From assembly GCA_963762075.1 (NCBI GenBank), contig CAVXJC010000006.1, positions 33,788-97,787 on the forward strand: 64,000 nt of DNA, given 5' to 3'. Below the pieces are notes generated by a model. The model was not told the origin of the DNA, did no database searches, and saw nothing but the letters and a program-made list of their open reading frames with translations. Position 1 is the stretch's first letter; every line of letters starts with the position of its first letter. Origin of the DNA: an uncultured Actinomycetes bacterium. GTDB taxonomy: Bacteria; Actinomycetota; UBA4738; HRBIN12. Shown here piece by piece: positions 37,174 through 63,675 of this stretch. Both the position numbers and the translations under genes were made by a program.

Positions 37174-38073
37174 CTATCGACCGATCGGGCCCTGCGACCG
37201 CAGGATGTCGTCCTCGAGGGCTTCGAGGCGGGCGACACGCTCCGCCGTAGGTGGGTGGGTCGAGAAGAGCGTCGCGAAGCCTCGACCCTTCAATGCCGAC
37301 AAAGGGCTCACGATGAACATGTGCGCCTCGGCGGGACTCACGCTTCGAGGAGGCGGGATACGCTTCGCCGTCTCCTCGAGCTTCGCGAGGGCGCTCGCCA
37401 ACGACCGCGGATCCCTCGACAGGTACGCCCCGGTCTCGTCGGCCTGATACTCCCGTGAGCGCGAGACCGCCATCTGGATGATCCCCGCCGCGATCGGCGC
37501 CACGATCCAGGCGAGCAGAAGAAAGAGCGGATTGCCCCCGCCCTCGTCGTCGCCGCCACCGAAGAACAGAGCGAACTGTGCGATGAACGAGATCGAAGTG
37601 CCGATGCCGGCTGCGATCGAGCCGATCAAGATGTCGCGGTTCGCGACGTGGCTCAGCTCGTGCGCCAAGACCCCGCGCAACTCACGCTCGTCGAGGATCT
37701 GCAAGATGCCCTTCGTGACCGCGACCTTCGCGTTCGAGGGACCGCGCCCCGTCGCGAAGGCGTTGGGCTGCATCATGTCCGAGACGTAGATCTCGGGCAT
37801 GGGCATCTCTTTGGCCGTCGCGAGCTCGCGGACGATGCGATAGAGCTGCGGGTACTCCTGCTCGGTCACGAGCCGCGAGTGGGTCGTACGCACCGCGATC
37901 GAGCCCGAGAACCAGTACATCGCGAAGTTGAAGCCGAGGCCGAGCACGAGGGCGATCACCAAGCCCTGACCACCCGGCAGGAGCCAGTTGCCGATCACCA
38001 GGAACAGCCCCATCAGGGCGGAGATCAAGATCCAGGTCTTCGCGCGATTGATGCCGGGTGTCAACGTCATCAC
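37174..38073 (-). CDS. htpX: zinc metalloprotease HtpX (M48 family)
   Basis: HELSHV zinc motif, four TM helices, typical length. Confidence 0.85.
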   Translation of the reverse strand: MMTLTPGINRAKTWILISALMGLFLVIGNWLLPGGQGLVIALVLGLGFNFAMYWFSGSIAVRTTHSRLVTEQEYPQLYRIVRELATAKEMPMPEIYVSDMMQPNAFATGRGPSNAKVAVTKGILQILDERELRGVLAHELSHVANRDILIGSIAAGIGTSISFIAQFALFFGGGDDEGGGNPLFLLLAWIVAPIAAGIIQMAVSRSREYQADETGAYLSRDPRSLASALAKLEETAKRIPPPRSVSPAEAHMFIVSPLSALKGRGFATLFSTHPPTAERVARLEALEDDILRSQGPIGR

Positions 38074-38231
38074 TCCTCGTCAGCGACAGCAGATCGGGCC
38101 ACTGGGCCCGATGGTCTCACAGGCGGTTCGTCGCGCACGACCCCGCGGTTTCCCGTCAACCCGAGCGATCGGATGCCGATGCATCTTGGAACACCCGCTC
38201 GAACATCCGAAGGAGATCCCCCCTGTCGCTC

Positions 38232-39077
38232 ATGCCGGATCGTTGGTTCGACCTCGTATCCTCGCGTGCCCGGGCATGGGGGGCCAGAAGCATGCCGGCG
38301 GTCGTGTTGCTCGCGCTCTCACTCGGCGGCACACCCACCCACTCGGTGGCGCCGCCGGCCGGCACCTGGGTCATCACGCGCACGAACGTCGAGCTGTTGG
38401 AATCGTTCGACGCCGAGCTTACGGCGGCGTTCTTCGACGGGCCGCAGACGGTCGCCCTCGACGGATACGGCGATGCCATAGTGGCCGAAGGGTGGGCGAG
38501 TCTGGCCGCGTTCGAGGCCGACGTCGACGCGGGGCTCATCCCCGACGAGGTGACCATGGTCATGTACGACCCCGAAGCCTGGGAGCACACACCGCTTTCC
38601 GAGCAGCTCGACCCCGCCACGGCGATGGCGAAGTTCGCCGAGCTCGCCCGGTCGCAGGGGTACGAGGTGCTGATGACCCCGCACCCTGGGCTCGTCACGG
38701 TGCCGGGTGCCGTGTGCGCCCAGCATCCGGGTGAGTCGGTCCCCGCTGCATTCGTGCGCTGCGGACTCCCTGCGGCCGCCGCGGTGAGCGCCGACATCGT
38801 GGACCTGCAGCTCCAGTCGCTTCAGCAGCATCCCGCTCGGTACCGGGAATGGGTCGCCGCTGCGGCTCGCCAGTCGCGCCGCGCCAACCCTCAGGCGCAG
38901 GTCCTGGCCCACCTCACGACGCGCTTGGCGCCCGACCCGACCGTGCTCTACGCGGCCTGGCGCTCGGTGCAGCCGGTCGTCGACGGCTGCTACATCGGCG
39001 TGCCCCAAGGCGCTCGGCCCCGCATGGCGATCGGATTCCTGCGCATGATCTCGGTCGGCGCCGACCGCAGGCGCTGA
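38232..39077 (+). CDS. hypothetical secreted protein
   Basis: Start at MPDRWFDLVSSRARAWGARSMPAVVLLALSLGG (signal-like). No confident family assignment. Confidence 0.45.
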   Translation: MPDRWFDLVSSRARAWGARSMPAVVLLALSLGGTPTHSVAPPAGTWVITRTNVELLESFDAELTAAFFDGPQTVALDGYGDAIVAEGWASLAAFEADVDAGLIPDEVTMVMYDPEAWEHTPLSEQLDPATAMAKFAELARSQGYEVLMTPHPGLVTVPGAVCAQHPGESVPAAFVRCGLPAAAAVSADIVDLQLQSLQQHPARYREWVAAAARQSRRANPQAQVLAHLTTRLAPDPTVLYAAWRSVQPVVDGCYIGVPQGARPRMAIGFLRMISVGADRRR

Positions 39078-39094: not shown

Positions 39095-40567
39095 TTAGGG
39101 CCCGATCCCGACCAGGGTGGAGATCTCCGCGAGACGGGCGAACGGGTTGGGCAACACGAAGATCACCACGACAGCGAGCATCGTGACCGCGACCACCGCG
39201 GTGACCAACGCCGGTACCCGGAGGCGAGACGGGTCGGCCGGGTCACGCAGGAACATCTGCCTCGGCACGACCAGATAGTAGAAGACGCTCACCACCGAGT
39301 TCACGAGCATCACCACAGCGAGCACGGGCCCCAGTGTGCCGCCTCGCTCGATCGCAGCCTGGAAGATCAGCAGCTTGGCCCAGAACCCTCCCGTGGGCGG
39401 CACGCCCGCCAGCGACACCATGAAGACGGTCATGCCGAAGGCGATCAGCGGCGCCGTCTCGCGGAGTCCGGCGAAGTCCGCGACGCGAAGCGCCGGGTGC
39501 CGGCGTGAGACCGCCACCGTCGCTGCGAATGCGCCGAGGTTCATGATGCCGTAGATCAGGATGTACGCGACCGCGGCGGCGAACGCGTCGCGGTTCGAAA
39601 CCACGTCGTCGGTGACCAGCGCGAAGGGCAGCAGGATGTAGCCCGCTTGGCCGATCCCCGAGTAGGCGAGCAGGCGCACGATCTGCGTCTGCTGCAGCGC
39701 CACCAGGTTGCCCACCGTCATCGTCGCGATCGACAGGAACGCGAAGATCGGCACCCAGAACTCGTGCTGGCCGGCGAATGCAACGAACATCAGCTGCAGC
39801 AGGCCCGCGAAGCCGGCAACGGCCGAGGCAACCGCGAGGAACGCGGCGACCGGCACCGGCGAGCCCTCGTAGGTGTCGGGCGCCCAGAACTGGAACGGGA
39901 ACGCCGACACCTTGAACGCGAAGCCCACGACCACGAACAAGATCGCAGCGAACGCGAGCGTCTCCATCTCGCCCGTCACGCCGTCGAGCGCGCTGGCGAT
40001 CTCGGCGAGCTGGGTCTCACCTTTCGTGACGCCGTAGATCAGGCTCATGCCGAACAGCATCACGGCCGTCGAGAGCACACCGATGATGAAGAACTTCACG
40101 CCCGCCTCGTTCGACTTCACGTCGCCCTTGCGGAACGCCGCCATCAAGAATCCCGGCGCCGAGACGAGCTCGAGCGCGATGAACAGCAGCAGCAGGTCGC
40201 GCGAGCTCGGCATCATGATGCAGCCGAGGAACGACGTGAGCAGTAGGAAGTAGTACTCCCCTTGATAGAAGCCGCCCTCGCGGAAGTAGCGCAGCGATAC
40301 CGCGAGCACGATGGCGGCCGTCACGAGGAAGAACCCCTTGAACAGCAGGGCGAATTCGTCGATCACGTAGGTGCCACCGAAGCTCGTGCGATCGCCGGCG
40401 CCGACGAGCGACACCACCGCGACGAGCGTTCCCAACACGCCTGTGAGTCCGAGCGGCATGGCGAACCATTTGGCGCGCTCGGGCAGGAACAGGTCGACCA
40501 CCAGCACGAGCAGGATCGTGCTCGACAGGATGATCTCGGGCGCGAGGGCGTGGTAGTCGATGTCCAT
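39095..40567 (-). CDS. nuoN: NADH-quinone oxidoreductase subunit N (partial-operon copy)
   Basis: MDIDYHALAPEIILSSTILLVL... NuoN topology and motifs. Confidence 0.85.
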   Translation of the reverse strand: MDIDYHALAPEIILSSTILLVLVVDLFLPERAKWFAMPLGLTGVLGTLVAVVSLVGAGDRTSFGGTYVIDEFALLFKGFFLVTAAIVLAVSLRYFREGGFYQGEYYFLLLTSFLGCIMMPSSRDLLLLFIALELVSAPGFLMAAFRKGDVKSNEAGVKFFIIGVLSTAVMLFGMSLIYGVTKGETQLAEIASALDGVTGEMETLAFAAILFVVVGFAFKVSAFPFQFWAPDTYEGSPVPVAAFLAVASAVAGFAGLLQLMFVAFAGQHEFWVPIFAFLSIATMTVGNLVALQQTQIVRLLAYSGIGQAGYILLPFALVTDDVVSNRDAFAAAVAYILIYGIMNLGAFAATVAVSRRHPALRVADFAGLRETAPLIAFGMTVFMVSLAGVPPTGGFWAKLLIFQAAIERGGTLGPVLAVVMLVNSVVSVFYYLVVPRQMFLRDPADPSRLRVPALVTAVVAVTMLAVVVIFVLPNPFARLAEISTLVGIGP

Positions 40568-40576
40568 CGAGGTGCG

Positions 40577-42112
40577 TCAGCCCCCCAGCAGGCTCATGAG
40601 CCCGCCGACCGCTTCGTCGGTGACGCCGAAGACGAGCCTCGGATACACGCCGAGCACCAGGATCAACAGGAGCAGCGGGAACCATGACACCCACTCGATC
40701 GTGAGCACGTCGCGCAAGCCGGCTTCCCGCCACTGATCGGGAAGGGTGCCCATGTTCACGCGCTGCAGCATCCAGAGGAAGTACGCCGCGGTGAGCACCG
40801 TGCCGACGCCGCCCATGACCATGAACACGCGGAAGAGGCCGACCTGATCGCCGAGCACGACCTCGTTGGGGTTGAACGAGCTGAGCAGCGCCATGACCTC
40901 GCCCCAGAACCCGGCAAGCCCCGGCAGGCCGAGCGAGGCGATCGAGACGAAGGCGAAGACGCCGCCGAGCTTGGGCATCGTCTGGAGCATGCCGCCGCCG
41001 ATCTTGGCGATCTCACGCGTGTGGTAACGATCGTAGATCGAGCCCACGCAGAAGAAGAGCATGCCCGTGATCACGCCGTGTGCGACCATGCCGAAGATCG
41101 CGGCCTGGATGCCGATCTCGGTGAGCGTGGCGATGCCGAGCATCACGAACCCCATGTGGCCGACCGACGAGAACGCGATCAAGCGCTTCAGGTCCTTCTG
41201 GGCGAGGCACGCGAGCGCGGCGTACACGATGCCGATCGCGGCGAGCGCTCCGATCCACGGCGCGTACTTCTCGGCGCCGTAGGGCAACGTCGGGATCGCG
41301 ATGCGGATGAACCCGTACGTGCCCATCTTCAGCATGATTCCCGCGAGCAGCACCGAGCCGATCGTGGGCGCCTCCGTATGTGCGTCGGGAAGCCACGTGT
41401 GGAACGGCCACATGGGCACCTTCACGGCGAATCCGAGCGCGACCGCGGCGAACACGATGATCTGGAAGGTGTTCGTGAACCCACCGCTGCCCCCGAACTC
41501 CGCGAGCACGACCATGTCGAAGGTGTGCGGATCGGGCCCGGCGAAGTACATGCCCAGGAACCCCAGGAGCATGAAGATCGATCCGAACAGCGTGTACAGG
41601 AAGAACTTGATCGACGCGTACTCGCGGTTCGCCGAGCCCCAGACGGCGATCAGGAAGTACATGGGCACGAGCACCATCTCCCAGAACACGAAGAACAGGA
41701 TCAGGTCGAACGCGATGAAGGTGCCCGCCATGCCGGTCTCGAGCAGCAGCATCAGGGCCAGGAACGCCTTGGTGCGGCCCGGGTCGGGCACGTAGCGCCA
41801 GCTATAGATCGCGCAGAGGAACGAGAGCAGGAACGTCAGCACGTACAGGGGCAGCGATATGCCGTCGATGCCCACGTGGAACCGCGCCCCGATCGCACTG
41901 ATCCAGTTCACGTCGAGCACGTACTGCAGACCGTCGGTGCCGTAGTCGAACCCCACCGCGATCGCGGCGGCGAGCACGAGCGCCGCCCCCGTGACGACGA
42001 TGCCGAGGCCGCGGATCGCACGATCCTTGTCTCGCGGCATCAGCGCGATCACCAACCCACCGGCGAGCGGCAGCAGCGTGGTGATCGTGATGGCCGAGCT
42101 CTCCCAGGTCAT
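40577..42112 (-). CDS. nuoM: NADH-quinone oxidoreductase subunit M (partial-operon copy)
   Basis: Start at MTWESSAITITTLLPLAGG with a GGAGG RBS. NuoM/ND4 blocks (WLPDAH). Confidence 0.85.
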   Translation of the reverse strand: MTWESSAITITTLLPLAGGLVIALMPRDKDRAIRGLGIVVTGAALVLAAAIAVGFDYGTDGLQYVLDVNWISAIGARFHVGIDGISLPLYVLTFLLSFLCAIYSWRYVPDPGRTKAFLALMLLLETGMAGTFIAFDLILFFVFWEMVLVPMYFLIAVWGSANREYASIKFFLYTLFGSIFMLLGFLGMYFAGPDPHTFDMVVLAEFGGSGGFTNTFQIIVFAAVALGFAVKVPMWPFHTWLPDAHTEAPTIGSVLLAGIMLKMGTYGFIRIAIPTLPYGAEKYAPWIGALAAIGIVYAALACLAQKDLKRLIAFSSVGHMGFVMLGIATLTEIGIQAAIFGMVAHGVITGMLFFCVGSIYDRYHTREIAKIGGGMLQTMPKLGGVFAFVSIASLGLPGLAGFWGEVMALLSSFNPNEVVLGDQVGLFRVFMVMGGVGTVLTAAYFLWMLQRVNMGTLPDQWREAGLRDVLTIEWVSWFPLLLLILVLGVYPRLVFGVTDEAVGGLMSLLGG

Positions 42113-42132
42113 GTGGCCTCCACGCTTCCTCT

Positions 42133-44133
42133 CTACACGAGCTTGACGAAGACGACGGACAAGGCGATCACGCCGACGAACAGGCCGACGGCGTACCACT
42201 GCACGTTGCCGTTCTGCAGGAACTTCAAGGCGTTACCGGTTCGGCCGGCGGTCTCACCGGCTCCGTTCACGGCGCCGTCGATCACGGTGCGATCGAACCA
42301 GGCGACCACCTGCCCCGACCCTCTCGTGATCGTGGCAGCGCCATTCACGACACCGTCGATCACGTTCTGGTCGAACCAGTTCACGGCGCTCGACAGACCA
42401 TCGCGCACCGGATAGACGATCGCCCGCATGTAGAAGGCGTCGATGTAGTAGCGGTGCTCGAGCGCGTTCCACAGGGGGCCCATGGGCGACCGCAACGGGT
42501 CCCGCTCCTTGCGATCCTTGTAGAGCGCGTACCCGGCCGCGAGGCCGAGCAGCGCGCCGGCCGTCGAGAGCAGCGCGATCCAGGGCACGAACACGGCCTC
42601 ATGCACCGTCTCGAAGAAGACCCATCGGCCGAAGACGGCGCCGAGCTGCGGCGCACCCAGCAGGCCGACGCCGACCGTCGCCACGGCGAGCGCGACCAGC
42701 GGACCGGTCATCGTCGCCGGCGACTCGTGCGGATGGGCCGTGCCCCTGTAGTCCCCGAAGAACGTCAGCCGCACCATGCGCATCGTGTAGAACGCCGTGA
42801 TCACCGCGGTCGCAAGGAAGACGACGAACAGCCACGTCACGTGCTCCTCCTGGGCGACGACGAGGAGTTCGTCCTTCGACCAGAACCCTGCGAGAGGGAA
42901 GATGCCCGCGAGCGCCAGCGAGCCGAGCAGCATCGTCCAGAACGTGATCGGCATCGACTTCCGCAGGCCGCCCATGTCGCTCATGTTGTTCGAGTGCACG
43001 GCGTGGATCACCGAGCCGGCGCCCAGGAACAGCAGAGCCTTGAAGAAGGCGTGCGTGAACAGGTGGAAGATGCCCGCGGTGAGCCCGAGCTCGCCGAGCG
43101 AGAGCCCGGCGACCATGTAGGCGAGCTGCGACAGCGTCGAGTAGGCGAGCACGCGCTTGATGTCGTCCTGCACGATCGCGAGCAGCGCCGCCCCGAGCGC
43201 CGTGATGCCGCCGATGATGCTCACGGTGGTGAGGACCCATGCGTCGGCGGACAAGAACACCTCGAAGAGCCGCGCGATGAGGTAGACGCCGGCTGCCACC
43301 ATGGTCGCCGCGTGGATCAGGGCCGAGACCGGGGTCGGACCGGCCATGGCATCGGGCAGCCAGACGTGCAACGGGAACTGTGCGGATTTCCCGACCGTGC
43401 CGCCGAACAGCAGCAGCGCTGCAATGGAGATGAACACCGGCGACGCTTCACCGAGGCCGAGCTCGTGCGCGACCTCGCCGATGTTGGTTGTCGTGAACCC
43501 TGTGGCGGCGATCAGGGCGATGATGCCGAACGTGAACGGGATGTCACCGATCCGCGTGGTGATGAACGCCTTGATCGCGGCGTTGGAGTTCTCCTTGACC
43601 TCCCACCAGTGCCCGATCAGCAGATAGGAGCAGACGCCCATGACCTCCCACCCGACGAGCAGCTGGATCAGGTTGTTCGCCACGACCACGGTGAGCATCG
43701 CGGCCGTGAACAACGACAAGACCACGAAGAACCACGTGAAACGCTCGTCGCCGTGCATGTAGCCGAGCGAGTAGACGTGCACACAGAGCGAGACCGCGGT
43801 GACGACCACGAGCATCACCGCGGTGAGTCCGTCGACGAGGATGCCGAGCTCGAGGTGCAGGGGCCCGATGGTGAACCATTCGATGTGCCCCTCGAACGGC
43901 CCGCCCCCTTGCACGAAATGCAGCAGCACGCCGAGCGAGAAGACGAACGACGCTCCCACGGCCGCGATGCCGTACACGGCGCCCTTGCCCGGCGTGCGTG
44001 AGCCGAAGAACAGGATGAGCGCTGCCGAGAGCAGCGGAAGCAGCACCACGATCCACGCGTGCTCAACGAACCAGAGCCCGTTCGTCGTGGTCTCGTAGAC
44101 CACCTCGCCCTCCGATGCGAGCAGGTTCACCAC
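42133..44133 (-). CDS. nuoL: NADH-quinone oxidoreductase subunit L (partial-operon copy)
   Basis: GTG start overlapping the nuoK TGA (GTGGTGA). NuoL/ND5 blocks. Long C-terminal amphipathic helix region. Confidence 0.8.
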
Positions 44134-44426
44134 TTGAGCAGGTTCACCTCGTCCACGTTGATCGACTCGCGTGTGCGGAAGAGCAGGATCACGATCGCGA
44201 GCCCGATGCCGACCTCGGCAGCAGCCACCGCGATCACGAACAGCGCGAACACCTGACCCGTCATCTGCTGCAGTGACGAGGCGAACGCGACCAGGTTCAC
44301 ATTGACGGCGTTGAGCATGAGCTCGATCGCCATGAGCACCATCACCGCGTTGCGGCGGGCGAGCACCCCGTACACGCCCGCCGAGAACAACAGGGCCGAG
44401 AACATCAGCACCAGCGGAAGCCGGAT
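44127..44426 (-). CDS. nuoK: NADH-quinone oxidoreductase subunit K (partial-operon copy)
   Basis: GTG start overlapping the nuoJ TGA. ...[28 protein letters not shown]. Confidence 0.8.
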
Positions 44427-44929
44427 CACGTCGAGTCGTCCTTGCGTGCGAGCACGATCGCACCGATCAGTGCGGCGAGCAGCAGGAACGAGACCGCCTC
44501 GAAGGGCAGCACGTAGGTGCGGAATATCGACTCCCCCACCATCTCCGTCGTTCCCTGGAACGTTTCGAAGGCTTGGGCGTCTTGCACCGGGAAGGCTTCC
44601 TGGATCAAGAAGACGAGTCCTGCGAATACCCCCACTCCGACGAGCGCGCCGAGCCAGCGCTGCTGGTTGTCGAGCGTGTCTCGTCCGATCGGCGCCTTGG
44701 TCAGCATGAGCCCGAACAGGAACAAGATCACGATCGCGCCCACGTAGATGAGGATCTGCACCCACGCCACGAACTCCGCGCCGAGCAACAGGTAGACACC
44801 GGCGACCGACAACAGCGAGACCACCAAGTAGAGCGCCGCGTGCACCACGTTGCGGGCCGTCACGACCGCGACCGCCGACAGGCTGCCGACCACGGCCAGC
44901 ACGCAGAACGCGTATTCCTGCGCGCTCAA
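44426..44929 (-). CDS. nuoJ: NADH-quinone oxidoreductase subunit J (partial-operon copy)
   Basis: TTG start overlapping the nuoI TGA (TTGA). [52 protein letters not shown]. Confidence 0.75.
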
Positions 44930-45459
44930 GAGCTGCCCGCCTCTTCCTCTGAAGGGTTCGCGACGGCGCCTTCTTCGAGGGCGGGTGGTGGCAGAACGGT
45001 GTAGGTCCACTCCTCGAGGCGTTCCTTCTCGTGGATGAGCAGGTCCATCTCGTACTCGGCGTACTCGAACTCGGGACTCCAGAACAGCGCGTCGAACGGA
45101 CACACCTCGACGCAGATGCCGCAATACATGCAGAGCGCATAGTCGATGGCGAACCGGTCGAGCACCTTCATCGAGCGAGCACGACCTCCCCCCGCCGGGT
45201 CGTGCGTTTCCTTGTGCGCGTCGATGTAGATGCACCAGTCGGGGCACTCGCGCGAGCACTTGTAGCAGACGGTGCAGTTGCCTTCCTTCAGGGCGATCAC
45301 GCCCCTCGTTCGGGCCGGAAGATCGGGCTTCACATGCGGGTACTGCACCGTCACGGCAGGCCTGAGCATGGTCTTCATCGTGACCGTGAGGCCCTTGAGC
45401 AGCCCGAGACCCACGCCGGATTCCGGCTGGTCCTTCTGTCCGGTCGTGTCGATGGCCAC
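44926..45459 (-). CDS. nuoI: NADH-quinone oxidoreductase subunit I (2x[4Fe-4S]) (partial-operon copy)
   Basis: GTG start with an AAGGAG RBS. Two CxxCxxCxxxCP ferredoxin motifs. Confidence 0.8.
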
Positions 45460-45473
45460 GGGTTCTCCTTCGC

Positions 45474-46487
45474 CTAGAACGCGACCTTGAAGAACGCGGC
45501 GCCCAGGATCCACACGAGCGAGACCGGGATGAGCGTCAGCCATGCGAAACGCTGGAGCTGATCTTCACGCAGCCGTGGGAATGTCGCCCGCAGCCAGATC
45601 GTCAGGAACGACAGGACGCCGATCTTGCCCGCCATCCAGATCGGGTCGGGCAGCGGGATGCCGGGCAGCCCCTGGTAGCCGCCGAGGAACAGCACCGCGG
45701 CGATGCCCGAGAGCGCCACGATGCCGCCGTACTCCGCGAGCAGGAAGAACGCGAACTTCAACCCGCCGTACTCGGTGAAGGCGCCGTAGATGATCTCGGA
45801 GTCGGCGACCGGCATGTCGAAGGGCGTGCGGCTGAGTTCGGCGAGCGAGGAGACCATGAAGATCAAGAACAACGGGAACAGCGGCACGGCGTACCACAAC
45901 GACTCCTGCGCCTCGACGATGCCGACCATCGAGGTGGCGCCGGCGAGCATCACGACGCCCGCGGCCGACAGCACCAACGGAAGCTCGTAGGCGATGAGCT
46001 GCGCGGCGGCTCGCAGGGCGCCGATCAGCGAGAACTTGTTCGCGCTCGACCACCCGGCCATGAGCACGCCGATCACCGAGACGCTCGACATGGCCATCAC
46101 GAAGAAGATGCCCACGTCGAGGTTCAGGGCGAACAACGTGTCGCTGAACGGCAGCACCACCAAGATCGCGATATAGGGCACCATGGCGACGCCCGGCGCC
46201 AGCGTGAAGATGACGCGATCGGCCGCGGCCGGCACCACGTTCTCCTTCTGGATGAACTTCACGCCATCGGCGATGAGCTGGGCCCACCCGTGGAAGGCGC
46301 CCGCTTCCATTGGACCGAGGCGCGATTGCATGTGCGCGAGCACCTTGTGCTCCATGTAGCCGACGCCGAGCGGCACCACGAGGAAGAACCCCAGCACGAG
46401 CACCGTCTTCAGCAGCAACGAGAGCCAGAAGTTCGTGGTGAGCTGCTCGACGAACGAGACGCCGGCCTGCGCGAGGACGTCGATCAT
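45474..46487 (-). CDS. nuoH: NADH-quinone oxidoreductase subunit H (partial-operon copy)
   Basis: [12 protein letters not shown]...[14 protein letters not shown] NuoH/ND1 signature. ATGA overlap with nuoC. Confidence 0.85.
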
Positions 46488-47065
46488 TCCTCCTCGGCCT
46501 CCTCACCCTCGACGGCGCCTGGCCAGGGCTTCGCCTCACGGGTCATGAGCGGGAAGTCCTTGCGCATCGGGTGACCCTCGAACGGCTCGGAGAGCAGCAG
46601 CTTCACCGGCGTCGGATGACCCTGGAACTTGATGCCGAACATCTCGGCGGTCTCACGCTCGTGCCAATCGCACGTGGGCCAGAGATCGCTCACCGTCGGT
46701 ACGACCGGGTCGTCGTAGTGCACGCCCACCTTCACACGCAGGTTGTGATGGTGCGCCGTGGAGAACAGATGGGTGAGCAGCTCGAATCCTCGCTCCTCAC
46801 CCCAGTCGACCGCGGAGGTGAAGTCGGCGTAATCGCACGCGAACTCCGGCTCGTCTCGCAGGAACCGACAGACGTCGTGATATCGCGCCTTCGTGACCGT
46901 GGCCACCGTGTGGCCGTGCTGGTCGGAGACATCGACGATGTCGGAGCCGAAACGCGCCCGCAGCCGGGATCCGGCCTCGTCGGGCGGCAGTGGACTGGGA
47001 CTCCTCACCGATCGCGCCCGCTGGCCAGAGAGGGGATCATCAGAACCCGGCGTTCGCTGGGGCAC
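46484..47065 (-). CDS. nuoC: NADH-quinone oxidoreductase subunit C (30 kDa) (partial-operon copy)
   Basis: [25 protein letters not shown]...[10 protein letters not shown] NuoC signature. AAGGACGAGGA RBS. Followed directly by nuoH with no nuoD. Confidence 0.8.
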
Positions 47066-47546
47066 CGAACTTCTCCTGGATGTCCTCGTCCTTGATCTTG
47101 TTCTGCAGCTCGATGATGCCGTGCAGCAGCGCTTCGGGCCGCGGTGGACAGCCGGGCACGTACACGTCGATCGGCACGATCTGGTCGACGCCCTTGGTGA
47201 CCGAGTAGCTATCCCAATACGGCCCCCCGCAGTTCGAGCATGAGCCGAACGAGATCACGTACTTCGGATCGGGCATCTGCTCGTACACACGCCTGAGCGC
47301 CGGCGCCATCTTGTCGGTGAGCGTGCCGGCCACGACCAACAGGTCGGCTTGACGCGGCCCGTGTGCGGCGGGGATCACGCCGAGGCGGATGAAGTCGTTC
47401 TTCGAGGTCGACGCGGCGATGAACTCGATCGCGCAGCATGCCAGGCCGAAGTTGATGACCCACAGCGAGTAACGACGCCCCCAGTTGAGGATGAACTTCA
47501 CGGGCTGGACCTTCGGAAGCGGAGTCCTCTCGGTGATCAGGCCCAC
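47040..47546 (-). CDS. nuoB: NADH-quinone oxidoreductase subunit B (partial-operon copy)
   Basis: GTG start. GLACCAIE...[10 protein letters not shown]...DVYVPGCPP Cys ligands of cluster N2. Confidence 0.8.
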
Positions 47547-47902
47547 CGAAGTACCCCCTTGCGCCAGGCGTACAGCAACCCCACGGCCAAGATCGCGATG
47601 AAGATGGTCATCTCCACGACCGCGGCGTATCCGAGGCCCTCGAACACCCTGGCCCAGGGGAACAGGAACACGCTTTCCACATCGAAGATCACGAACAGGA
47701 AGCCGTAGACGTAGTAACGGACGTGGCTCTGCGACCAGCCGTGACCCACCGGGTCGATGCCACATTCGTAGGTGGTGAGCTTCTCGAAGTTGGGCTTGCT
47801 GGGCGCCACGAGGTGCGCGGTGGCGAACGCAACGGCAACCAGCAACGCACCGGCGGCCACGACCGCCAGCACTACCCCGTACGACGCGTAGTAATCGCTC
47901 AT
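47537..47902 (-). CDS. nuoA: NADH-quinone oxidoreductase subunit A (partial-operon copy)
   Basis: Start at [25 protein letters not shown] motif. Confidence 0.8.
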
Positions 47903-47975
47903 GACAGTGAGAGGCCTTTCGAGCGCCCGTATCGTAGCAGCGCGCTCGGTTCGGTCCGAACGTGCGGCGAACGCG

Positions 47976-49004
47976 TCATGTGGCCTCAGCTCCACAACGT
48001 GCTGCCAGGAATCTCGCGAGCTGGGTGAGGGCATGACGGGAGGGTCCTTCGGGAAGCCGCTCGGCGAGTCCGACCGCCCGTCGTACCTCGTCGGTCACGG
48101 CGGCGCGGGCTGCATCGACCGAGCCCCCCGACCGCACGATCTCGAGCGCACGGTCGAGCATCTCTCCATGGGGCGAACCGTGCGAGAGGACTCGCGCGAG
48201 CTCCACACGGTGCTCATCGTGAGCGAGGGCGTGGAGGACCGGCAACGTGTACACACCTTCGCGCAGGTCCTGCCCCGGTTCCTTGCCGAGCTCCATCTGC
48301 GACGACGTGATGTCCATGATGTCGTCGGAGAGCTGGTAGGCCATGCCAAGCGCGTCGCCGAACTCTTCCAGCACATCGACGTGCTCTGGGTCGGCGTCGG
48401 AGAGCATGCCTCCGAGCCGGCACGACGTGGCGATCAACGAGGCGGTCTTTCGACGGATGATCTCGAGATAGTTGCCGGTCTCCTGCTCCACCTTGGCCGA
48501 GCTCTCCACCTCGCGGATCTGTCCGTCGCAGAGCACCGCGATCGTGCGGGCGAGCAGACGGCAGACCTCGGTGCCGAGGTCGGTCGAGATCTCCGATGCG
48601 CGGGCGAACAGATAGTCGCCCGTGAGGATCGCAACCGTGTTGTCCCACCGCATGTTCGCGCTCGGCGCGCCGCGGCGGGCATCGGCCTCATCGATCACGT
48701 CGTCGTGGTACAGGGTCGCGAGATGCACGAGCTCGATCGAGACGGAGCCCGGCACGAGCCGCGGGTCGGCCGGCTCGCCGAAGTAGCCGGCGAGCAGCAC
48801 GAGCATCGCGCGGAAACGCTTTCCGCCTGCGGAGATCAGGTACGACGACGTCTCGCTGAGCATGCCCGAGGCTTCTGCTCGCACCGACTTCTCGAGCGCC
48901 TCCTCGACCTGATCCAGGCGCGTTCGCACCTCGGATTCGAGCACGGCGTCGGGGGGCTCGAGGCCCGGGATCACACGGCGGCTCATCGGGTCGGCCCCCG
49001 CCAC
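47976..49004 (-). CDS. polyprenyl diphosphate synthase (trans-isoprenyl diphosphate synthase family)
   Basis: First Asp-rich motif LYHDDVIDEAD and second DDIMD. Lies between the two nuo operons. Confidence 0.85.
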   Translation of the reverse strand: MAGADPMSRRVIPGLEPPDAVLESEVRTRLDQVEEALEKSVRAEASGMLSETSSYLISAGGKRFRAMLVLLAGYFGEPADPRLVPGSVSIELVHLATLYHDDVIDEADARRGAPSANMRWDNTVAILTGDYLFARASEISTDLGTEVCRLLARTIAVLCDGQIREVESSAKVEQETGNYLEIIRRKTASLIATSCRLGGMLSDADPEHVDVLEEFGDALGMAYQLSDDIMDITSSQMELGKEPGQDLREGVYTLPVLHALAHDEHRVELARVLSHGSPHGEMLDRALEIVRSGGSVDAARAAVTDEVRRAVGLAERLPEGPSRHALTQLARFLAARCGAEAT

Positions 49005-49008
49005 GGAG

Positions 49009-50454
49009 TCACCACGTGAGGACTCCGGCTTCCTCGAGCAGCGGCACGATCACACTCGGCACGATACCCAGGGCGATGACCGCGACCGCTGGCACCGCGA
49101 GCACGAACTGTGGAAGCGGCGAGCCGTCGGCGATGTCGTCACCGTCCGGTTCGTGCATGGTCATGAGGGCGACGACGCGCAGATAGAAGAAGGCGCCCAC
49201 CACCGTCGCCAAGGTGCCGATGAGGACGAGCGGCCAGTATCCGCTGTTCGTGGCCGCGCCGAAGACCAGCACCTTCCCAGCGAACCCGGCGGTCGGAGGG
49301 ATGCCCGCGAGCGAGAGCAGGAACAGGGTGAGCAGCCCTGCCAGCACCGGCCGTCGACGCGCCAGGCCGCGGAATCGCTCGAACTGGGTCTGCTCGCCGA
49401 TGCCGCCGGAGATCAGCATCACGACGCCGAAGGCGCCGACCACGGCCACGCTGTACGAGATCAGGTAATAGAGCGATGCGGCGATGCCGGCTCGATCGGA
49501 CGAGACGAACGCCGTCAAGATGAACCCGGCCTGCGACACGCTCGAGTATGCAAGCATGCGCTTCACATCACGCTGAGCGATAGCGAGCACGCTCCCGAGG
49601 ACCATCGAGACAGCCGCAAGCACCGCGATCGCCGGTGCGAGGTCCCACTGCAACGCGCCGAAGGCGACGAAGAGCACCCGCATCATCGCGACGAACACCG
49701 CGACCTTGGTCGCGGCCGACATGAACGCGGTCACCGGGCTGGGGGCGCCCTGGTACACGTCGGGCGTCCACATGTGGAACGGCACCAGGCTGACCTTGAA
49801 CCCGAGACCCACCATGAGCAAGAGCGCGCCGACCAGGGCGAGCCCCTGGCTTCCGCTCGTGCCGGCGAGCGCCCGTGCCAGGCCTTGCACGCTCGTGGTC
49901 GCCGCCGCGCCGTAACTCATGGCCACGCCGTACAGCAGGAACGCCGAGGCGAACGCGCCGAGCAGGAAGTACTTCATGGCGGCCTCGGTTGGGCCTCGGC
50001 GAAACGTGAGCGCCGTGAGCACGTACAGGGCGAGGGAGAGCACCTCGACCGCGAGGAACACCACGATGAGATCGGCGGCGGCGACCAGCAGCGCCATGCC
50101 GCCGAGGGCGAAGAGGAGCAGCGCGTAGAACTCGTGACGCCGATGCTCGTCGCGTTCGAAGTAGTGGAACCCGAGGTAGGCGCCGTAGGCACCGATGCCG
50201 CAGAGCACCACGGTGGCGATCACCGCCAGGCGGTCGACGCTCGCCATGCCCTGGAGCACGGTCGTCGGCTCGCGGTTCCAGAGCCATGATGACGACCCGG
50301 CCGCGGCCGCGATCACGGCCAGCGTGAACAGCACGAACGGCGCCTGGTCGGCGCGCCGCGAGAAGGCCGCAGCGAGCAGCGCGACGAGTCCCCCGCCGAA
50401 CAGGATGAGCACGGGCAGGATCGCCCAGAGCTCGACGCGGGGCGGGTCGATCAC
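49009..50454 (-). CDS. nuoN: NADH-quinone oxidoreductase subunit N (complete-operon copy)
   Basis: GTG start with an AGGAG RBS, overlapping the nuoM TGA (GTGA). The upstream 400 aa of the listed ORF are Arg-rich antisense of nuoM. Confidence 0.85.
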   Translation of the reverse strand: MIDPPRVELWAILPVLILFGGGLVALLAAAFSRRADQAPFVLFTLAVIAAAAGSSSWLWNREPTTVLQGMASVDRLAVIATVVLCGIGAYGAYLGFHYFERDEHRRHEFYALLLFALGGMALLVAAADLIVVFLAVEVLSLALYVLTALTFRRGPTEAAMKYFLLGAFASAFLLYGVAMSYGAAATTSVQGLARALAGTSGSQGLALVGALLLMVGLGFKVSLVPFHMWTPDVYQGAPSPVTAFMSAATKVAVFVAMMRVLFVAFGALQWDLAPAIAVLAAVSMVLGSVLAIAQRDVKRMLAYSSVSQAGFILTAFVSSDRAGIAASLYYLISYSVAVVGAFGVVMLISGGIGEQTQFERFRGLARRRPVLAGLLTLFLLSLAGIPPTAGFAGKVLVFGAATNSGYWPLVLIGTLATVVGAFFYLRVVALMTMHEPDGDDIADGSPLPQFVLAVPAVAVIALGIVPSVIVPLLEEAGVLTW

Positions 50455-51971
50455 GGCGACTCCTGGGCGCGGTCGAGGGCGGCGATCTCGGAAGACGAAA
50501 GGTCGCGCATGAGCCGATGCGACACGTCTTCCGCCGTCGGACGAAGCCGTTCGAGCACCGGCGCCGGGTGCAGGCCGATCACCAACATGGCGACGACGAC
50601 CGGGGCAACGATCGCGCCTTCGCGCCACGAGAGGTCCGGCAACGAGCTCCACCGCTGCTTCAGCGGGCCCTGGAACGCACGCTGATAGGACCAGAGCATG
50701 TAGATCGCGCTCAGGATCACACCGACGATCGCGATCGACGCGAGCGCCCGGTCGACCGAGAACGTGCCCAGCAGCACCAGGAACTCGCCGACGAAGTTGT
50801 TCAGCCCGGGCAACCCGATCGACGAGAGCATCGCGACCACGTAGGCGCCGGCGAGCCATGGGGTGACCTGGACGATGCCGCCGAGCTCGGCGATCTCGCG
50901 CGTGTGCGTGCGCTCGTACAACATGCCGAAGACGAGGAAGAGCATGCCGGTCGACAGGCCGTGGTTCACCATCTGTATCACCGCGCCATCGATCGCCTCG
51001 GCCGAGAACGCGAAGATGCCGAGCACGATCAGGCCCATATGGCTCACCGACGAATACGCGATCAGTCGCTTGAAGTCGGTCTGCATCATCGCGACGATCG
51101 CGCCGTAGATGATGCCGATCACCGCGAGCACCATGATCGCGTCCGCGAAGTAGCGAGAGGCCTCTGGGAACAGGTCGAGGTTGAAGCGGAGCATGCCGTA
51201 TGGACCCGTTTTCAGAAGGATCGCCGCGAGCACGATCGAGCCCTTCGTCGGCGCCTCGGTGTGAGCGTCGGGAAGCCACGTGTGCAGGGGCCACACCGGC
51301 ACCTTCACCGCGAAACCGATGAAGAACGCGAGGAACAACCATCGGCCCTCTCCCGTCGTGAGCTGGAGCTGCTCGAGGGCGGTGAGGTCGAACGTCGCCC
51401 GGCCGAGCTGGTCCCCGGCCTGCACGTACAGATACAGGATGCCGACGAGCAGGAACGCCGAGCCGAACATGGTGTACAGGAGGAATTTCGTGGCGGCGTA
51501 GACGCGCCGCTTCGAGCCCCACACACCGATGATGTAGTACATCGGAAAGAGCAGTGCCTCGAAGAAGAGGAAGAACAACAACAGGTCCAGCGACAGGAAC
51601 GCCCCGATGATCACTGTCTCGAGGAACAGCGACATCGCCATGAACCGGCGCACCTGGTGATCGACCTTCCACGAGGCCGCGATGGCGATCGGGAACATGA
51701 ACGTCGTGACCATGACGAGCCAGATGGAGAAGCCGTCGACACCGACGAACCAGGACAGGCCGACCGACTCGACCCAGGGATGCTTCGAGACCATCTGCAG
51801 GCCCGCCTCGCCCGTCTCGAAGTTCGCCAACATGCCGACCGAGACGACGAACGCGACGAGGGTTGCCCCGAGTCCGACCCAGCGCGCGGCGTCGTCGGGG
51901 ATCGAACGCCAGAGCGCGAGCGCCGGCAACCCCACGAGGGGAGCCACGATCACCAGGGTGAGCCAGGGCAT
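50451..51971 (-). CDS. nuoM: NADH-quinone oxidoreductase subunit M (complete-operon copy)
   Basis: Start at MPWLTLVIVAPLVGLPALALW. The GTG two codons upstream is an alternative. WLPDAH motif. Confidence 0.85.
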   Translation of the reverse strand: MPWLTLVIVAPLVGLPALALWRSIPDDAARWVGLGATLVAFVVSVGMLANFETGEAGLQMVSKHPWVESVGLSWFVGVDGFSIWLVMVTTFMFPIAIAASWKVDHQVRRFMAMSLFLETVIIGAFLSLDLLLFFLFFEALLFPMYYIIGVWGSKRRVYAATKFLLYTMFGSAFLLVGILYLYVQAGDQLGRATFDLTALEQLQLTTGEGRWLFLAFFIGFAVKVPVWPLHTWLPDAHTEAPTKGSIVLAAILLKTGPYGMLRFNLDLFPEASRYFADAIMVLAVIGIIYGAIVAMMQTDFKRLIAYSSVSHMGLIVLGIFAFSAEAIDGAVIQMVNHGLSTGMLFLVFGMLYERTHTREIAELGGIVQVTPWLAGAYVVAMLSSIGLPGLNNFVGEFLVLLGTFSVDRALASIAIVGVILSAIYMLWSYQRAFQGPLKQRWSSLPDLSWREGAIVAPVVVAMLVIGLHPAPVLERLRPTAEDVSHRLMRDLSSSEIAALDRAQESP

Positions 51972-51982
51972 GGCATCCACGG

Positions 51983-53935
51983 CTAGATCCTCACCGCCGC
52001 GTACAACAACAGGGCCGCGCCTCCGGCCGTGAACGAGAGCGCGTACCGGCGGGCCTTCCCCGACTGCCACACGGGGGCGAGGCCCGAGGCCCAGGTCGCG
52101 AGCCTTCCCACACCGTTGACAGCACCGTCGACCACCGTCCGGTCGAACCATGCGAGCGCCGAGGCGCCACGCAATCCGGCGGCGCCGACGAGCCATCCGT
52201 AGAGGGCGTCGACGTAGAACGCGTTGCCCAGCGCCGAAGACATGCCGGGTTCCCGTTCGGGGAACGAGACCCATCGATCGGCGTTGGCCGGGCGGTACAG
52301 CAGCCAGGCGATGCCGATGCCGGAGAGCGTCACGATCACCGAGATGGCGATCAAAGCGATGGTCGAGGGTCCTGCATGTCCCTCTTCGATATGGCCGAGC
52401 GTTGGCTCGAGGAAGGTCGCCAGACGCCCTTCGGGTGAGGAGGCCAGCACGATGCCGGCGAGCAGGCCGCCGGTTGCAAGCACCACGAGCGGCGCCCGCA
52501 TCAGCGGCGAGGCTTCGTGCGCGCGGCCCTCGTACCGGCGTTCACCCATGAACGCTTGGAAGAACAACCGGGCGATGTACCAGGCCGAGATCAAGGCAGC
52601 GAGCGAGCCGAGCAGGTATGCCCAGACGACGCCGTCGTGGCTCGCGAGCTCGAGGATCGCGTCCTTGGTGAAGAAACCGCTGAACGGCGGCAGTCCCGAG
52701 AGCGATATGGCCCCGGCCGCGAAGAGCGCTGCGGTCCACGGCATGTCGAGGCGCACGCCGCCGAGACGCCGCACGTCGACCTCGTCGTGCAGCCCGTGCA
52801 TGACGTTTCCCGACGCGAGGAAGAGCAGAGCCTTGTAGCAGGCGTGGGCAACGAGCAGCGAGATCGCGACGGAATAGAACCCCAGCCCGGCGGCCAAGAA
52901 CATGAACCCGAGCTGCGACATCGTCGAGTAGGCAAGCGCCCGCTTCATGTCGTACTGACCGATCGAGGCGAGGCCGCCGTAGAGAGCTCCGGCGAGGCCC
53001 ACGATCGCGACCACGGTGAGCGCGACGTCGGAGGCCTCGAAGAGAGCGTGCGAGCGCACCACGAGGTACACACCCGCGGTCACCATGGTCGCCGCGTGGA
53101 TGAGGGCCGACACCGGTGTCGGACCGGCCATGGCGTCGGGCAACCAGACGTGCAACGGAAGTTGTGCCGACTTCCCCACGGCGCCTCCGAGCAGCAGCAG
53201 CGAGATGGCAGTCGCGGTGCCGGTCGCGATCTCGGGCAGCGACCCATCGTGACCGAGCACCGTGTCGAAATCGAACGAGCCGAAGTGCATGAACATCACG
53301 AAGAGCCCGAGCATCAAAGCGACGTCGCCGATGCGAGTGGTGATGAAGGCTTTCTTCGCGGCGCTCGCCGCCTCGGGGCGGTCCGACCAGAACCCGATCA
53401 ACAGATAGGAGCAGAGCCCGACGCCTTCCCAGCCGAGGTAGAGCAGCACGAAGTCGTTCGCGAGCACCAGCGCGAGCATGAACGCGCAGAACAGGTTGGT
53501 GTAGCCGAAGAATCGCCCGGGACGCGCGTCGTGCTCCATGTAGCCGATCGCATACAGGTGGATGAGCGAGCCGACGCCGGTGACGATCATCGCCATGGTG
53601 ATCGAGAGCGGGTCGACGCGCAGATCGAGCGAGACGGTGGTCGCGCCGGCACGGATCCACTCGGCCACCGTGACGACCTGGATGCGCTCCTCAGCCGGAA
53701 GCGACAGGAGTTGCAACAGAGCGCCGAGGGCGACGACGAACGACGCGGCCATTGCGGCGGTTGCGAGCCATCCTGCTCCTTGGCCGGCTCCTTGGCCGGC
53801 TCCTTGGCCAGACCCGTGGCCCGTTCGTTGGCCGGATCCTTCACCTTCGGCTCGCCCGAGCCGCTCGCCAGCGAGCATGTTCACGGCCGCCGCCACGAGT
53901 GGGATGACGACGGCGAGCCAGATGACGTCGATCAT
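51983..53935 (-). CDS. nuoL: NADH-quinone oxidoreductase subunit L (complete-operon copy) with Gly-rich low-complexity insertion
   Basis: [17 protein letters not shown]... ATGA overlap with nuoK. Contains a [13 protein letters not shown] insertion. Confidence 0.85.
53777..53812. repeat. 12-nt tandem repeat x3 (ctccttggccgg) inside nuoL, encoding [12 protein letters not shown]
   Basis: Direct repeat seen in sequence at 53777-53812. In-frame within the nuoL N-terminal loop. Confidence 0.7.
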
Positions 53936-54237
53936 CCGCGTAGCACGCTCGCTCGGTCGACGTCGGTGGTCGAGGTGCGCCGAAAGACCGCCACGATGAT
54001 GGCGAGACCGACCACTACTTCGGCGGCCGCCACCACCATGGAGAAGAAGGCCAGGATCTGTCCGTCGAGCTCGAGGTGCATGCGCGAGAACGCCACGAGC
54101 GTGAGGTTCACTGCGTTGAGCTGCAGCTCGACACCCATGAAGATGCGCAGCGCGTTCGGCCGGGTGAGGACCGCCGCCGAACCGACCGCGAACAAGATCG
54201 CGGAGAGCACCAGGAAGTAGGCGATCGGCGTCCTCAC
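53932..54237 (-). CDS. nuoK: NADH-quinone oxidoreductase subunit K (complete-operon copy)
   Basis: 101 aa with the canonical NuoK sequence. ATGA overlap with nuoJ. Confidence 0.85.
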
Positions 54238-54785
54238 CGCGTCGCCTCGATCTCGCGCTGGGTGAGCACCTTCGAGCGGCGCAGCGCGAGAACCATCGCG
54301 GCCACCGCGGCGATGATCAGCAGGATCGAAGTCACCTCGAACGGGAAGAAGTAATCGCGGAAGAGCACGTCGGCGAGCGCTGACGGATTCCCGCCCGGGT
54401 TCACCGTGTCGAACCCGTCGGGTGCCCTGGTTGCGAACCCGACCCCCGCTCTGATGGCGGTTGCGAGCTCCGCCACGATCGCAAGGCCGAAGATCACGGC
54501 GGTCGTGCGCTGGCCGAACAACCGCTCACCCGGCAACGCGCCTTGGTCGACGCCGAGCAGCATGATCACGAACAAGAACAGGACCATGATCGCGCCCGCG
54601 TACACGACGATCTGCACGGCGAAGAGGAACGGTGCGTCGAGCAGCAGGTACATCACGGCGATCGTGAAGAAATTCACCACGAGGAAGAGAGCCGCGTGCA
54701 CGGCGCTTCGTACGACGATCATGCCGACGCCGGTCGCGACCGACAGCGGCGCGAAGACCCAGAACACGACGTTGTCGAGAGGCAC
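54234..54785 (-). CDS. nuoJ: NADH-quinone oxidoreductase subunit J (complete-operon copy)
   Basis: [37 protein letters not shown]... Confidence 0.85.
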
Positions 54786-54792
54786 CGGTTCC

Positions 54793-55347
54793 CTAACCCT
54801 CCCGGTCCACCGGGTCGGTACCGAGAGGCAGCGGCGGCTCGAGCAGCTGCTCCTTCGTCCAGATCGCCTCTTCTCGGCTCGTGAACGCCATCTCGTAATG
54901 GCTCGTCAGTGTGAGCGCTCTGGTCGGACACGCCTCGACGCAGAGGCCGCACATGATGCAGCGCAGGTAGTTGATCTGGTAGTCCTTCGCGTACCGCTCC
55001 CCGGGACTCACCGGGTGCTCGGGATCGTTGTCGGCGCCCTCCACCCAGATGGCGTCTGCCGGGCACGCGAACGCGCAGAGTTCGCACCCGATGCACTTCT
55101 CGAGGCCGTCGTCGTGCTTGTTCAGCAGGTGTCGCCCGATATGCGAACGCTCGGGGATCGGCGCGATCTCCTTGGGGTACTGCTCGGTGTTATCGGCGCG
55201 GAAGGTCTGCTTGAACACGGTCGCCATGCCCTTGCCGATCGCAAGTGCGGCCTCCCACGCTCCCTGATCGGCTGGTGGGCCGGGTTCCGTGTCGTCTTGG
55301 AGCCGGCGATCGTGACCCTCGTCGGTCGTCCGTGCGTCGTCGCTCAC
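54793..55347 (-). CDS. nuoI: NADH-quinone oxidoreductase subunit I (complete-operon copy)
   Basis: GTG start overlapping the nuoH TGA (GTGA). No other start codon lies between it and the ATG of MATVFKQ. Two 4Fe-4S motifs [12 protein letters not shown] and [12 protein letters not shown]. Confidence 0.8.
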
Positions 55348-60282: not shown

Positions 60283-60874
60283 GCGTTCGCCCCGTCTGCG
60301 CGTTCGAGCGCGGCTTCCTCGAGGCCGGCCAGCATGCGCGAGGCTGCCTTGAAGGACTCGACCGCCGGACCCCTGGCAGGCAGGGGCACCTCGCCTGCAC
60401 GGAGCAACTCGACGATCTCCCGCATATGTTCGGGTGAGACGAGGTCGTGGTTGGCGACGTTCACCTGCACCACGGGGGCGAGCTCGCAGACGCCGAGGCA
60501 CTCCTCCTCGTGCACGGTGAACTCACCGTCGTCGGAGACCTCGCTACGCTGGGCGATGCCGGTGGCGTCGTGCGCGGCGTCGTACACATCCCTCGCCCCG
60601 CGGAGCGAACACGAGAGGTTCGTGCAGACCGCGATCAGATGCGTGCCCGTCGGGCGCAGCCGCAACATCGTGTAGAAGCTCGCCACGGCCTCGACCTCGG
60701 CCGTGCGCACACCGATGAGCGTGGCGACTTCCTGCAGAGCTTCCCGGCTGACATACCCCTCGACGGACTGCGCCAGGTAGAGCAACGGCATCACCGCGGA
60801 ACGCTGCCGCCCCGAGGGGTAGCGAGCCATGATCGCGTTCGCCTCGTCGAGCCGCGCGCCCTCGAAGATCTCCA

Positions 60875-60875
<1 letters not shown>
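60279..60875 (-). CDS. nuoE: NADH-quinone oxidoreductase subunit E
   Basis: Thioredoxin-like 2Fe-2S motifs CTNLSC...CLGVCELAP. Confidence 0.85.
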
Positions 60876-62152
<1,277 letters not shown>

Positions 62153-62162
62153 GACGATGCCC

Positions 62163-63659: not shown

Positions 63660-63675
63660 GCGCGAATCCTATCGG

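Follow-up and report, generated by a model that had tools for sequence, protein, structure and literature searches.

A second complex I operon in an uncultured actinobacterial lineage is of the nuo2 type and probably depends on a NuoD encoded elsewhere

We analysed a 64-kb window of high-GC DNA (~66% GC) from an uncultured actinobacterial lineage, in which three minus-strand units follow one another: a complete canonical nuoA-N operon for respiratory complex I (49009-63668), a polyprenyl diphosphate synthase gene (47976-49004), and a cluster of ten further nuo genes (39095-47902) with no nuoD among them. Judged by gene content and orthology, the ten-gene cluster is the actinobacterial nuo2 operon, a type already known, and not a new kind of complex I operon without nuoD. 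The nuo2 enzyme is probably not NuoD-less as a system. The most likely source of this subunit is an unlinked nuoD2 gene, and the next most likely is NuoD1 of the complete operon. We put the chance that a dedicated NuoD2 is supplied from an unlinked locus outside the 64-kb window at somewhat better than even.

Pfam identifies the products of the cluster as NuoA, B, C, H, I, J, K, L, M, and N, and together with the open reading frame (ORF) models it bears out the coordinates and the gene count given in a preliminary description of this DNA. All ten genes lie on the minus strand. nuoA2 (47537-47902) encodes 121 aa (PF00507, E=5.9e-35), or 152 aa according to gene callers that place its start at 47995. 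nuoB2 (47040-47546, 168 aa, PF01058) has the ligands of the N2 [4Fe-4S] cluster and scores above the NCBIfam NuoB subfamily cut-offs. nuoC2 (46484-47065) encodes the 30-kDa subunit with an acidic tail (PF00329, E=2.5e-39), 193 aa in length or 174 aa if translation begins at a GTG at 47008. It is followed by nuoH2 (45474-46487, 337 aa, PF00146, E=3.7e-100) and by nuoI2 (44926-45459, 177 aa), which matches Fer4 families and has the two CxxCxxCxxxCP motifs of clusters N6a and N6b. The remaining genes encode the small membrane subunits NuoJ2 (44426-44929, 167 aa, PF00499, NCBIfam NuoJ) and NuoK2 (44127-44429, 100 aa, PF00420), and the antiporter-like subunits NuoL2 (42133-44133, 666 aa, PF00662 and PF00361), NuoM2 (40577-42112, 511 aa, PF00361, TIGR01972 score 557.7), and NuoN2 (39095-40567, 490 aa, PF00361, TIGR01770 score 376). 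NuoL2 passes the NCBIfam NuoL equivalog cut-off, at 629.6 versus 556. The best NCBIfam matches of all ten proteins are Nuo families, with Mrp and hydrogenase models scoring far lower and below their cut-offs; NuoC2 and NuoI2 score under the NCBIfam subfamily cut-offs and are the divergent members of the set. Adjacent genes of the operon overlap by up to 26 nt or are separated by up to 20 nt (31 nt if NuoC2 starts at 47008), and the ATG of nuoH2 overlaps the stop codon of nuoC2 as ATGA.

The absence of nuoD and nuoEFG from the operon, as first described, stands. A tblastn search of all 64 kb with NuoD1 and two NuoD2 proteins returned a single match, nuoD1 of the complete operon (60875-62152), whose product matches Mycobacterium smegmatis NuoD at E=6.8e-172. 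The same queries found no nuoD, C-D fusion, or nuoD remnant in 39095-47902, including 46484-47065, where a nuoD-like ORF or a C-D fusion had been named as the result that would speak against the first description. Neither NuoE, NuoF, and NuoG nor remnants of them were detected in 39095-47902 by tblastn and Pfam; the cluster likewise contains no nuoG-like gene and no homologue of the NiFe-hydrogenase large subunit, and the window holds no second NuoEFG. Paralogues of the two sets share only 28-51% identity. We therefore rejected a recent duplication, in agreement with the preliminary description, and the nuo2 set is an old paralogue of complex I.

The junction without nuoD is not peculiar to this window. 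NuoC2 has 708 relatives in the database at E<=1e-10, and a scan of one genome per species gave at least 599 candidate matches, of which at least 585 were confirmed as NuoC2 relatives. We compared the loci of the 80 best of these 585 or more matches, all from uncultured Actinomycetota. The order of set 1 (...G-H-I-J-K-L-M-N) followed by A2-B2-C2-H2-I2-J2-K2-L2-M2-N2 is present in 80/80 loci. Because the extrapolated distance between nuoC2 and nuoH2 is -15 to +12 nt in every one of them, which leaves no room for nuoD, the D-less junction is ancient and fixed.

Operons of this kind have been described in Streptomyces, whose nuo2 genes form one unbroken cluster apart from nuoD2, found at another locus (PMC3765725, PMC8388888). 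By annotation, the Streptomyces nuo2 genes (SCO4599-4608 in S. coelicolor) lack NuoCDEFG, and their function is unclear (PMC9239103); the named genes are nuoA2, nuoB2, and nuoH2-N2, with nuoD2 apart. L2 and M2 of S. coelicolor are SCO4606 and SCO4607 (PMC8388888); from its position, we infer that the unnamed SCO4601 is NuoC2. The preliminary description, which had the second Streptomyces set keeping nuoD and lacking nuoC, is mistaken on this point. Our comparison with Streptomyces rests on the published descriptions, and orthology at the sequence level was established through Nonomuraea and Thermostaphylospora. The chromosome of Nonomuraea gerenzanensis (NZ_LT559118.1, 11.85 Mb) carries a canonical nuoA-N operon and, at a distance of ~55 kb, a nuo2 operon with the order A2-[M48 peptidase]-B2-C2-H2-[3.6-kb insert]-I2...N2, in which nuoC2 overlaps nuoH2 and no nuoD is present. 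All ten of its nuo2 proteins share 40-71% identity with set 2 of the window; each nuo2 gene is best matched by a set-2 protein and each canonical gene by a set-1 protein. In Thermostaphylospora chromogena the order is A2-B2-C2-H2-[Ser/Thr kinase]-I2...N2, and set 2 shares 39-80% identity with this locus and with two Nitriliruptoria-type nuo2 loci. Many cultured Streptosporangiales have annotated NuoC2 orthologues. The coexistence of the window's nuo2 with a complete nuoA-N operon is also as in the nuo2 type. Since NuoC2 is directly followed by NuoH2 in the orthologous Nonomuraea and Thermostaphylospora operons, the arrangement seen in the window is not a new D-less type. A Ser/Thr kinase gene between nuoH2 and nuoI2 was seen in both Streptosporangiales genomes examined and may be a hint of regulation. 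As a practical matter, PLSDB files chromosome-sized actinomycete replicons as plasmids, among them NZ_LT559118.1, essentially unannotated there, and Embleya sp. NZ_CP108785.1 (5.73 Mb).

Nitriliruptoria reveal what the operon looked like before nuoD2 left it. Salsipaludibacter albus has an 11-gene operon, A2-B2-C2-D2-H2-I2-J2-K2-L2-M2-N2. On a Joint Genome Institute (JGI) contig, L096, with relatives among Egibacteraceae, canonical nuo...N and a polyprenyl synthase gene are followed by A2-B2-C2-D2-H2...N2, which is the tandem layout of the window plus nuoD2. With the Salsipaludibacter NuoD2 as query, we found an orphan nuoD2 in Nonomuraea at 471,043-472,179, ~740 kb from nuo2, among genes for a DoxX-like protein, an acyltransferase, and folK/folP; no second NuoD is present in ~147 kb around its nuo and nuo2 operons. 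None of the genes that surround Nonomuraea nuoD2 (folK, folP, DoxX, and others) was found in the window or in any related locus. The Nonomuraea protein is 57% identical to the in-operon NuoD2s and 34-42% identical to NuoD1s, and overall the three NuoD2 proteins (encoded at L092 11878-13059, L096 10846-12042, and L093 7986-9140) share 56-70% identity with each other and 34-43% with NuoD1 proteins. Thus nuoD2 stood between nuoC2 and nuoH2 in the ancestral nuo2 operon, as it still does in Nitriliruptoria, and it is out of the operon in the lineage of the window and in Streptosporangiales, as well as in Streptomyces by the published account.

NuoD2 proteins also carry a signature of their own. The clade keeps the His38 motif and has Trp at the position of the quinone ligand Tyr87, within an RHDWLS sequence common to all three NuoD2s and to 120/120 relatives of the L096 protein (its best 120 matches, Egibacteraceae-like, at >=75% identity). 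A ~41-residue segment with the LIHHFK helix in it is missing from the clade, a deletion also present in NuoD from the 11-subunit operon of Bacillus, where the Tyr is retained. A Y87W substitution has been reported in NuoD of piericidin-producing Streptomyces as a strain-specific and very rare change in the NUO14 NuoD (PMC4758237).

We counted residue invariance over 50-80 species-level relatives, the number varying by subunit. The N2 ligands of NuoB2 (Cys37, 38, 103, and 133) are unchanged in 79 relatives, all eight ligand cysteines of NuoI2 in 63, and NuoA2 D74 and E76 in 73. Also invariant are E36 and E72 of NuoK2; E163, K249, K365, and K420 of NuoL2; E145, K231, K262, and E405 of NuoM2; and E133, K219, and K398 of NuoN2. 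NuoB2 matches mouse NDUFS7 (PSST) at E=2.5e-55, with an alignment that is dense over the whole domain, and this match is much stronger than that to M. smegmatis NuoB (E=1.7e-44). NuoH2 keeps the canonical quinone-channel and E-channel motifs. The loop between its transmembrane helices 5 and 6 departs from the aligned PFDLPEAEAEL loop of plant Nad1; plant mitochondrial Nad1 is the best match of NuoH2 among solved structures. On this residue conservation, the complex looks like a working redox-driven pump rather than an antiporter module or a cluster in decay.

In the AlphaFold model of NuoC2 (mean predicted local distance difference test score, pLDDT, 81, core >90), the core superimposes on solved NuoC chains with Foldseek TM-scores of 0.70-0.73, and NuoC chains in the Protein Data Bank (PDB) are matched by sequence as well. 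The last 33 residues (142-174) are disordered in the monomer AlphaFold2 model. The C-terminal part contains an invariant family motif, R.AKPWPG, in place of the usual NuoC C-terminal hairpin. Long disordered C-terminal tails, acidic or Ala/Pro-rich, occur on NuoC2 and NuoI2 of several lineages, with NuoC2 reaching 626 aa; examples are the long-tailed NuoC2-like representatives P0130, P0138, P0141, and P0190 and the 362-aa NuoI2 of Nonomuraea (L087 18989-20077). In the window the tails of both proteins are reduced to short acidic ones.

Known structures of complex I place the quinone ligands Tyr87 and His38 on NuoD and cluster N2 at the interface of NuoB and NuoD, and show NuoC held mainly by NuoD. 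As none of the Fe-S ligands or proton-pump residues varies, a NuoD partner is to be expected for nuo2. The operon encodes a full membrane arm (NuoA, H, J, K, L, M, and N), the connecting Fe-S subunits NuoB and NuoI, and the scaffold subunit NuoC, and is read most economically as a complex I of the 11-subunit type, which is without NuoEFG. On this reading, nuoD2 would have left the operon in an ancestor of several actinobacterial lineages, and the enzyme would assemble with NuoD2 made in trans. Electrons would pass from N6a/N6b to N2 and on to menaquinone, with protons pumped as in other 11-subunit complexes I. The electron donor may be of the ferredoxin type; alternatively, NuoEFG from the complete operon next to nuo2 could perhaps serve as the donor module. 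Genes resembling korAB, for a 2-oxoacid:ferredoxin oxidoreductase (POR, POR_N, and TPP_enzyme_C domains), lie divergently upstream of nuoA2 in both Streptosporangiales genomes (L091 5519-8441 and L087 6203-9080, both on the minus strand). Their position gives a weak indication of a ferredoxin link, though synteny within the lineage alone could also account for it.

Several points weigh against an unlinked nuoD2 in the lineage of the window. The precedent consists of one genome that we analysed, Nonomuraea, and of statements in the Streptomyces literature. nuoD2 is absent from the window and, among the 80 related loci, from the 10 kb that flank nuo2 on each side. A tblastn search with NuoH2 finds three NuoH-like places in NZ_LT559118.1, that is, one besides nuo and nuo2, so that Nonomuraea has a third, unplaced NuoH-like locus. 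Genomes of the lineage are small, one complete chromosome from a metagenome-assembled genome (OY969099.1, with nuo2 at 391,434-411,937) measuring 3.13 Mb, and a lineage with small genomes may have lost nuoD2.

The preliminary description offered three explanations for the missing subunit, namely a borrowed NuoD, an unknown partner, and an antiporter-like module. It left out the option with the best support, a dedicated NuoD2, the gene for which is in cis in Nitriliruptoria and unlinked in Nonomuraea. Among the three, borrowing is the one that survives best, and we regard it as possible if rather doubtful. According to this explanation the lineage lacks nuoD2, and NuoD1 made from the adjacent operon, perhaps along with NuoE1, F1, and G1, joins the nuo2 subunits, so that one quinone/NADH (Q/N) module would serve two different membrane arms. 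Such a hybrid has been proposed for Streptomyces (PMC9239103). It is consistent with nuoD1 being the only NuoD gene in 64 kb, with the conservation of every feature that needs a NuoD partner, and with the position of nuo2 directly downstream of nuoA-N, separated by one gene and no obvious terminator, an arrangement found in 70/70 relatives. However, the tandem layout is older than the loss of nuoD2 from the operon, as L096 has the same layout and its own nuoD2. The adjacency is therefore ancestral, not an adaptation for borrowing NuoD1, and is by itself no argument for it. The NuoD2 clade is also structurally unlike NuoD1, given the missing LIHHFK-helix segment and the Trp at Tyr87, and the NuoC2 signature motif is invariant whether or not nuoD2 is in cis, which suggests the same kind of partner throughout.

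A complex I operon truly without the subunit of the quinone site would be remarkable, but we consider it improbable that nuo2 is a NuoD-less enzyme or has a non-homologous partner. NuoB2, C2, and I2 would then sit on the membrane arm without the 49-kDa subunit, and an unknown protein or the C-terminal segment of NuoC2 would close the quinone site. In favor of this are the lack of nuoD in cis in hundreds of genomes, the family-specific motif that replaces the usual C-terminal hairpin of NuoC2, and a separate noncanonical NADH dehydrogenase (NDH) without nuoDEF in Marinimicrobia (PMC6143742). Yet relatives with the same NuoC2 motif have nuoD2 right beside it, and Nonomuraea, a lineage without nuoD in the operon, keeps nuoD2 elsewhere. 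Such an enzyme would also have to dispense with the quinone ligands, the N2 interface, and the anchoring of NuoC that established structures place on NuoD. The specific form in which nuoD2 has been lost and nuo2 works as a proton pump without the 49-kDa subunit, the REAKPWPG segment of NuoC2 or another protein completing the N2/quinone site, appears slightly less probable again. That nuo2 is an Mrp-like cation/proton antiporter module with no redox activity, or a cluster in decay, is very improbable and was rejected on the conservation data, since its three antiporter-like subunits and missing NADH module are set against 12 Fe-S Cys ligands that are all invariant over ~60-80 species (which contradicts the antiporter-like option of the preliminary description), best NCBIfam matches to Nuo rather than Mrp families with NuoL2 above its equivalog cut-off, intact ORFs in the window, and the same gene order in 80 related species-level loci.

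The genes around nuo2 are conserved to different degrees. The polyprenyl diphosphate synthase gene between nuoN1 and nuoA2 (PF00348, E=2.3e-63) is upstream and on the same strand in 70/70 related loci with enough flank, and from this synteny it appears to be a conserved linker gene of the tandem arrangement. Downstream of nuoN2 lies a minus-strand gene for an M48 (HtpX-like) peptidase (37174-38073, PF01435, E=1.3e-36), and a same-strand M48 match occurs slightly downstream of the nuoN2 position in ~47 related loci. In Nonomuraea the corresponding gene (L087 11335-13029) sits between nuoA2 and nuoB2. The peptidase accompanies nuo2 across classes and may have a role in assembly or quality control of the complex. 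An ORF of 339 aa on the plus strand between nuoN2 and the peptidase gene (38058-39077) has no Pfam match; its conservation is confined to the two nearest relatives (L007, 74% identity; L009, 58%), and it is probably not part of the nuo2 system. A scan for promoters and terminators gave counts not clearly over the expectation from shuffled sequence, and nothing resembling a terminator was seen from nuoN1 to nuoA2. By eye, the 73-nt gap between the polyprenyl synthase stop codon and the nuoA2 ATG (47903-47975) holds the hexamer TACGAT, a possible -10 element of the actinobacterial kind. Both nuo sets and the polyprenyl synthase gene may form one transcription unit of ~25 genes.

Taken together, the window operon is a member, in an uncultured lineage, of the known but barely studied nuo2 family, which is widespread, with at least 585 confirmed NuoC2 matches at one genome per species in addition to many cultured actinomycetes. 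The evolutionary series from an 11-gene operon with nuoD2 in cis (Nitriliruptoria) to a 10-gene operon with an orphan nuoD2 (Nonomuraea, Streptomyces), the sequence signature of the NuoD2 clade (Trp replacing Tyr87, and a missing LIHHFK helix), and the companions of nuo2 (polyprenyl synthase, M48 peptidase, and, in Streptosporangiales, korAB) provide handles on its function and electron donor, a question that dates from the sequencing of Streptomyces genomes. What remains of interest is the function of nuo2 and the less likely case that no dedicated NuoD exists in this lineage.

Among the closest known systems, the nuo2 of Streptomyces also consists of ten contiguous genes with no nuoEFG and no nuoD in the cluster and is likewise accompanied by a full nuoA-N. 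The two sets are about two dozen genes apart in Streptomyces (SCO4562-4575 versus SCO4599-4608), whereas in the window nuo2 comes straight after nuoA-N, with the polyprenyl synthase gene alone in between. The third nuo2 gene is clearly nuoC in the window, while its counterpart SCO4601 is unnamed, and an unlinked nuoD2 is reported in the Streptomyces papers where the window has none in 64 kb. The nuo2 of Nitriliruptoria (Salsipaludibacter and L096) belongs to the same paralogue family, with 40-80% identity per subunit and the NuoC2 motif, and L096 also shares the tandem layout of canonical nuo and polyprenyl synthase. In contrast to the window, nuoD2 lies between nuoC2 and nuoH2, and NuoC2 has a disordered acidic tail of ~100-450 residues.

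The 11-subunit complex I (NuoABCDHIJKLMN), found in the Bacillus cereus group and other bacteria, resembles nuo2 in having no NuoEFG, and an 11-subunit form has been listed for Actinobacteria (Moparthi & Hagerhall 2011, PMC3144371). The window operon shares with it the absence of NuoEFG, the Fe-S ligands, and the Lys and Glu residues of the antiporter subunits, but without NuoD in the operon it does not have all 11 core subunits. Among the records searched, Bacillus and Paenibacillus are closest to NuoH2 and to Salsipaludibacter NuoD2 after Nonomuraea, and the Bacillus NuoD is short and without the LIHHFK-helix segment, as in the NuoD2 clade. By contrast, nuoD remains within the Bacillus operon and its product retains the Tyr87 residue, and Bacillus NuoC (383 aa) has a low-complexity extension at the N-terminus, not the C-terminus, and no KPWPG motif. 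In Marinimicrobia a noncanonical NDH is likewise a second NDH-1-like set without nuoD beside a canonical one (PMC6143742); this system, compared by description only, is from another phylum and keeps a nuoG-like gene, unlike nuo2. The window subunits do not score best against Mrp or hydrogenase families, as would those of Mrp and membrane-bound hydrogenase (Mbh, Mbx, and Ech) modules, and no large-subunit homologue is present in the cluster. Finally, both Streptomyces papers draw an analogy to cyanobacterial NDH-1 (PMC3765725, PMC8388888), the variants of which combine shared subunits with paralogues encoded elsewhere. In cyanobacteria, however, the core is shared and NdhD/NdhF vary, whereas in nuo2 nearly the whole complex is duplicated and it is NuoD, and perhaps the electron donor module, that would be encoded apart.

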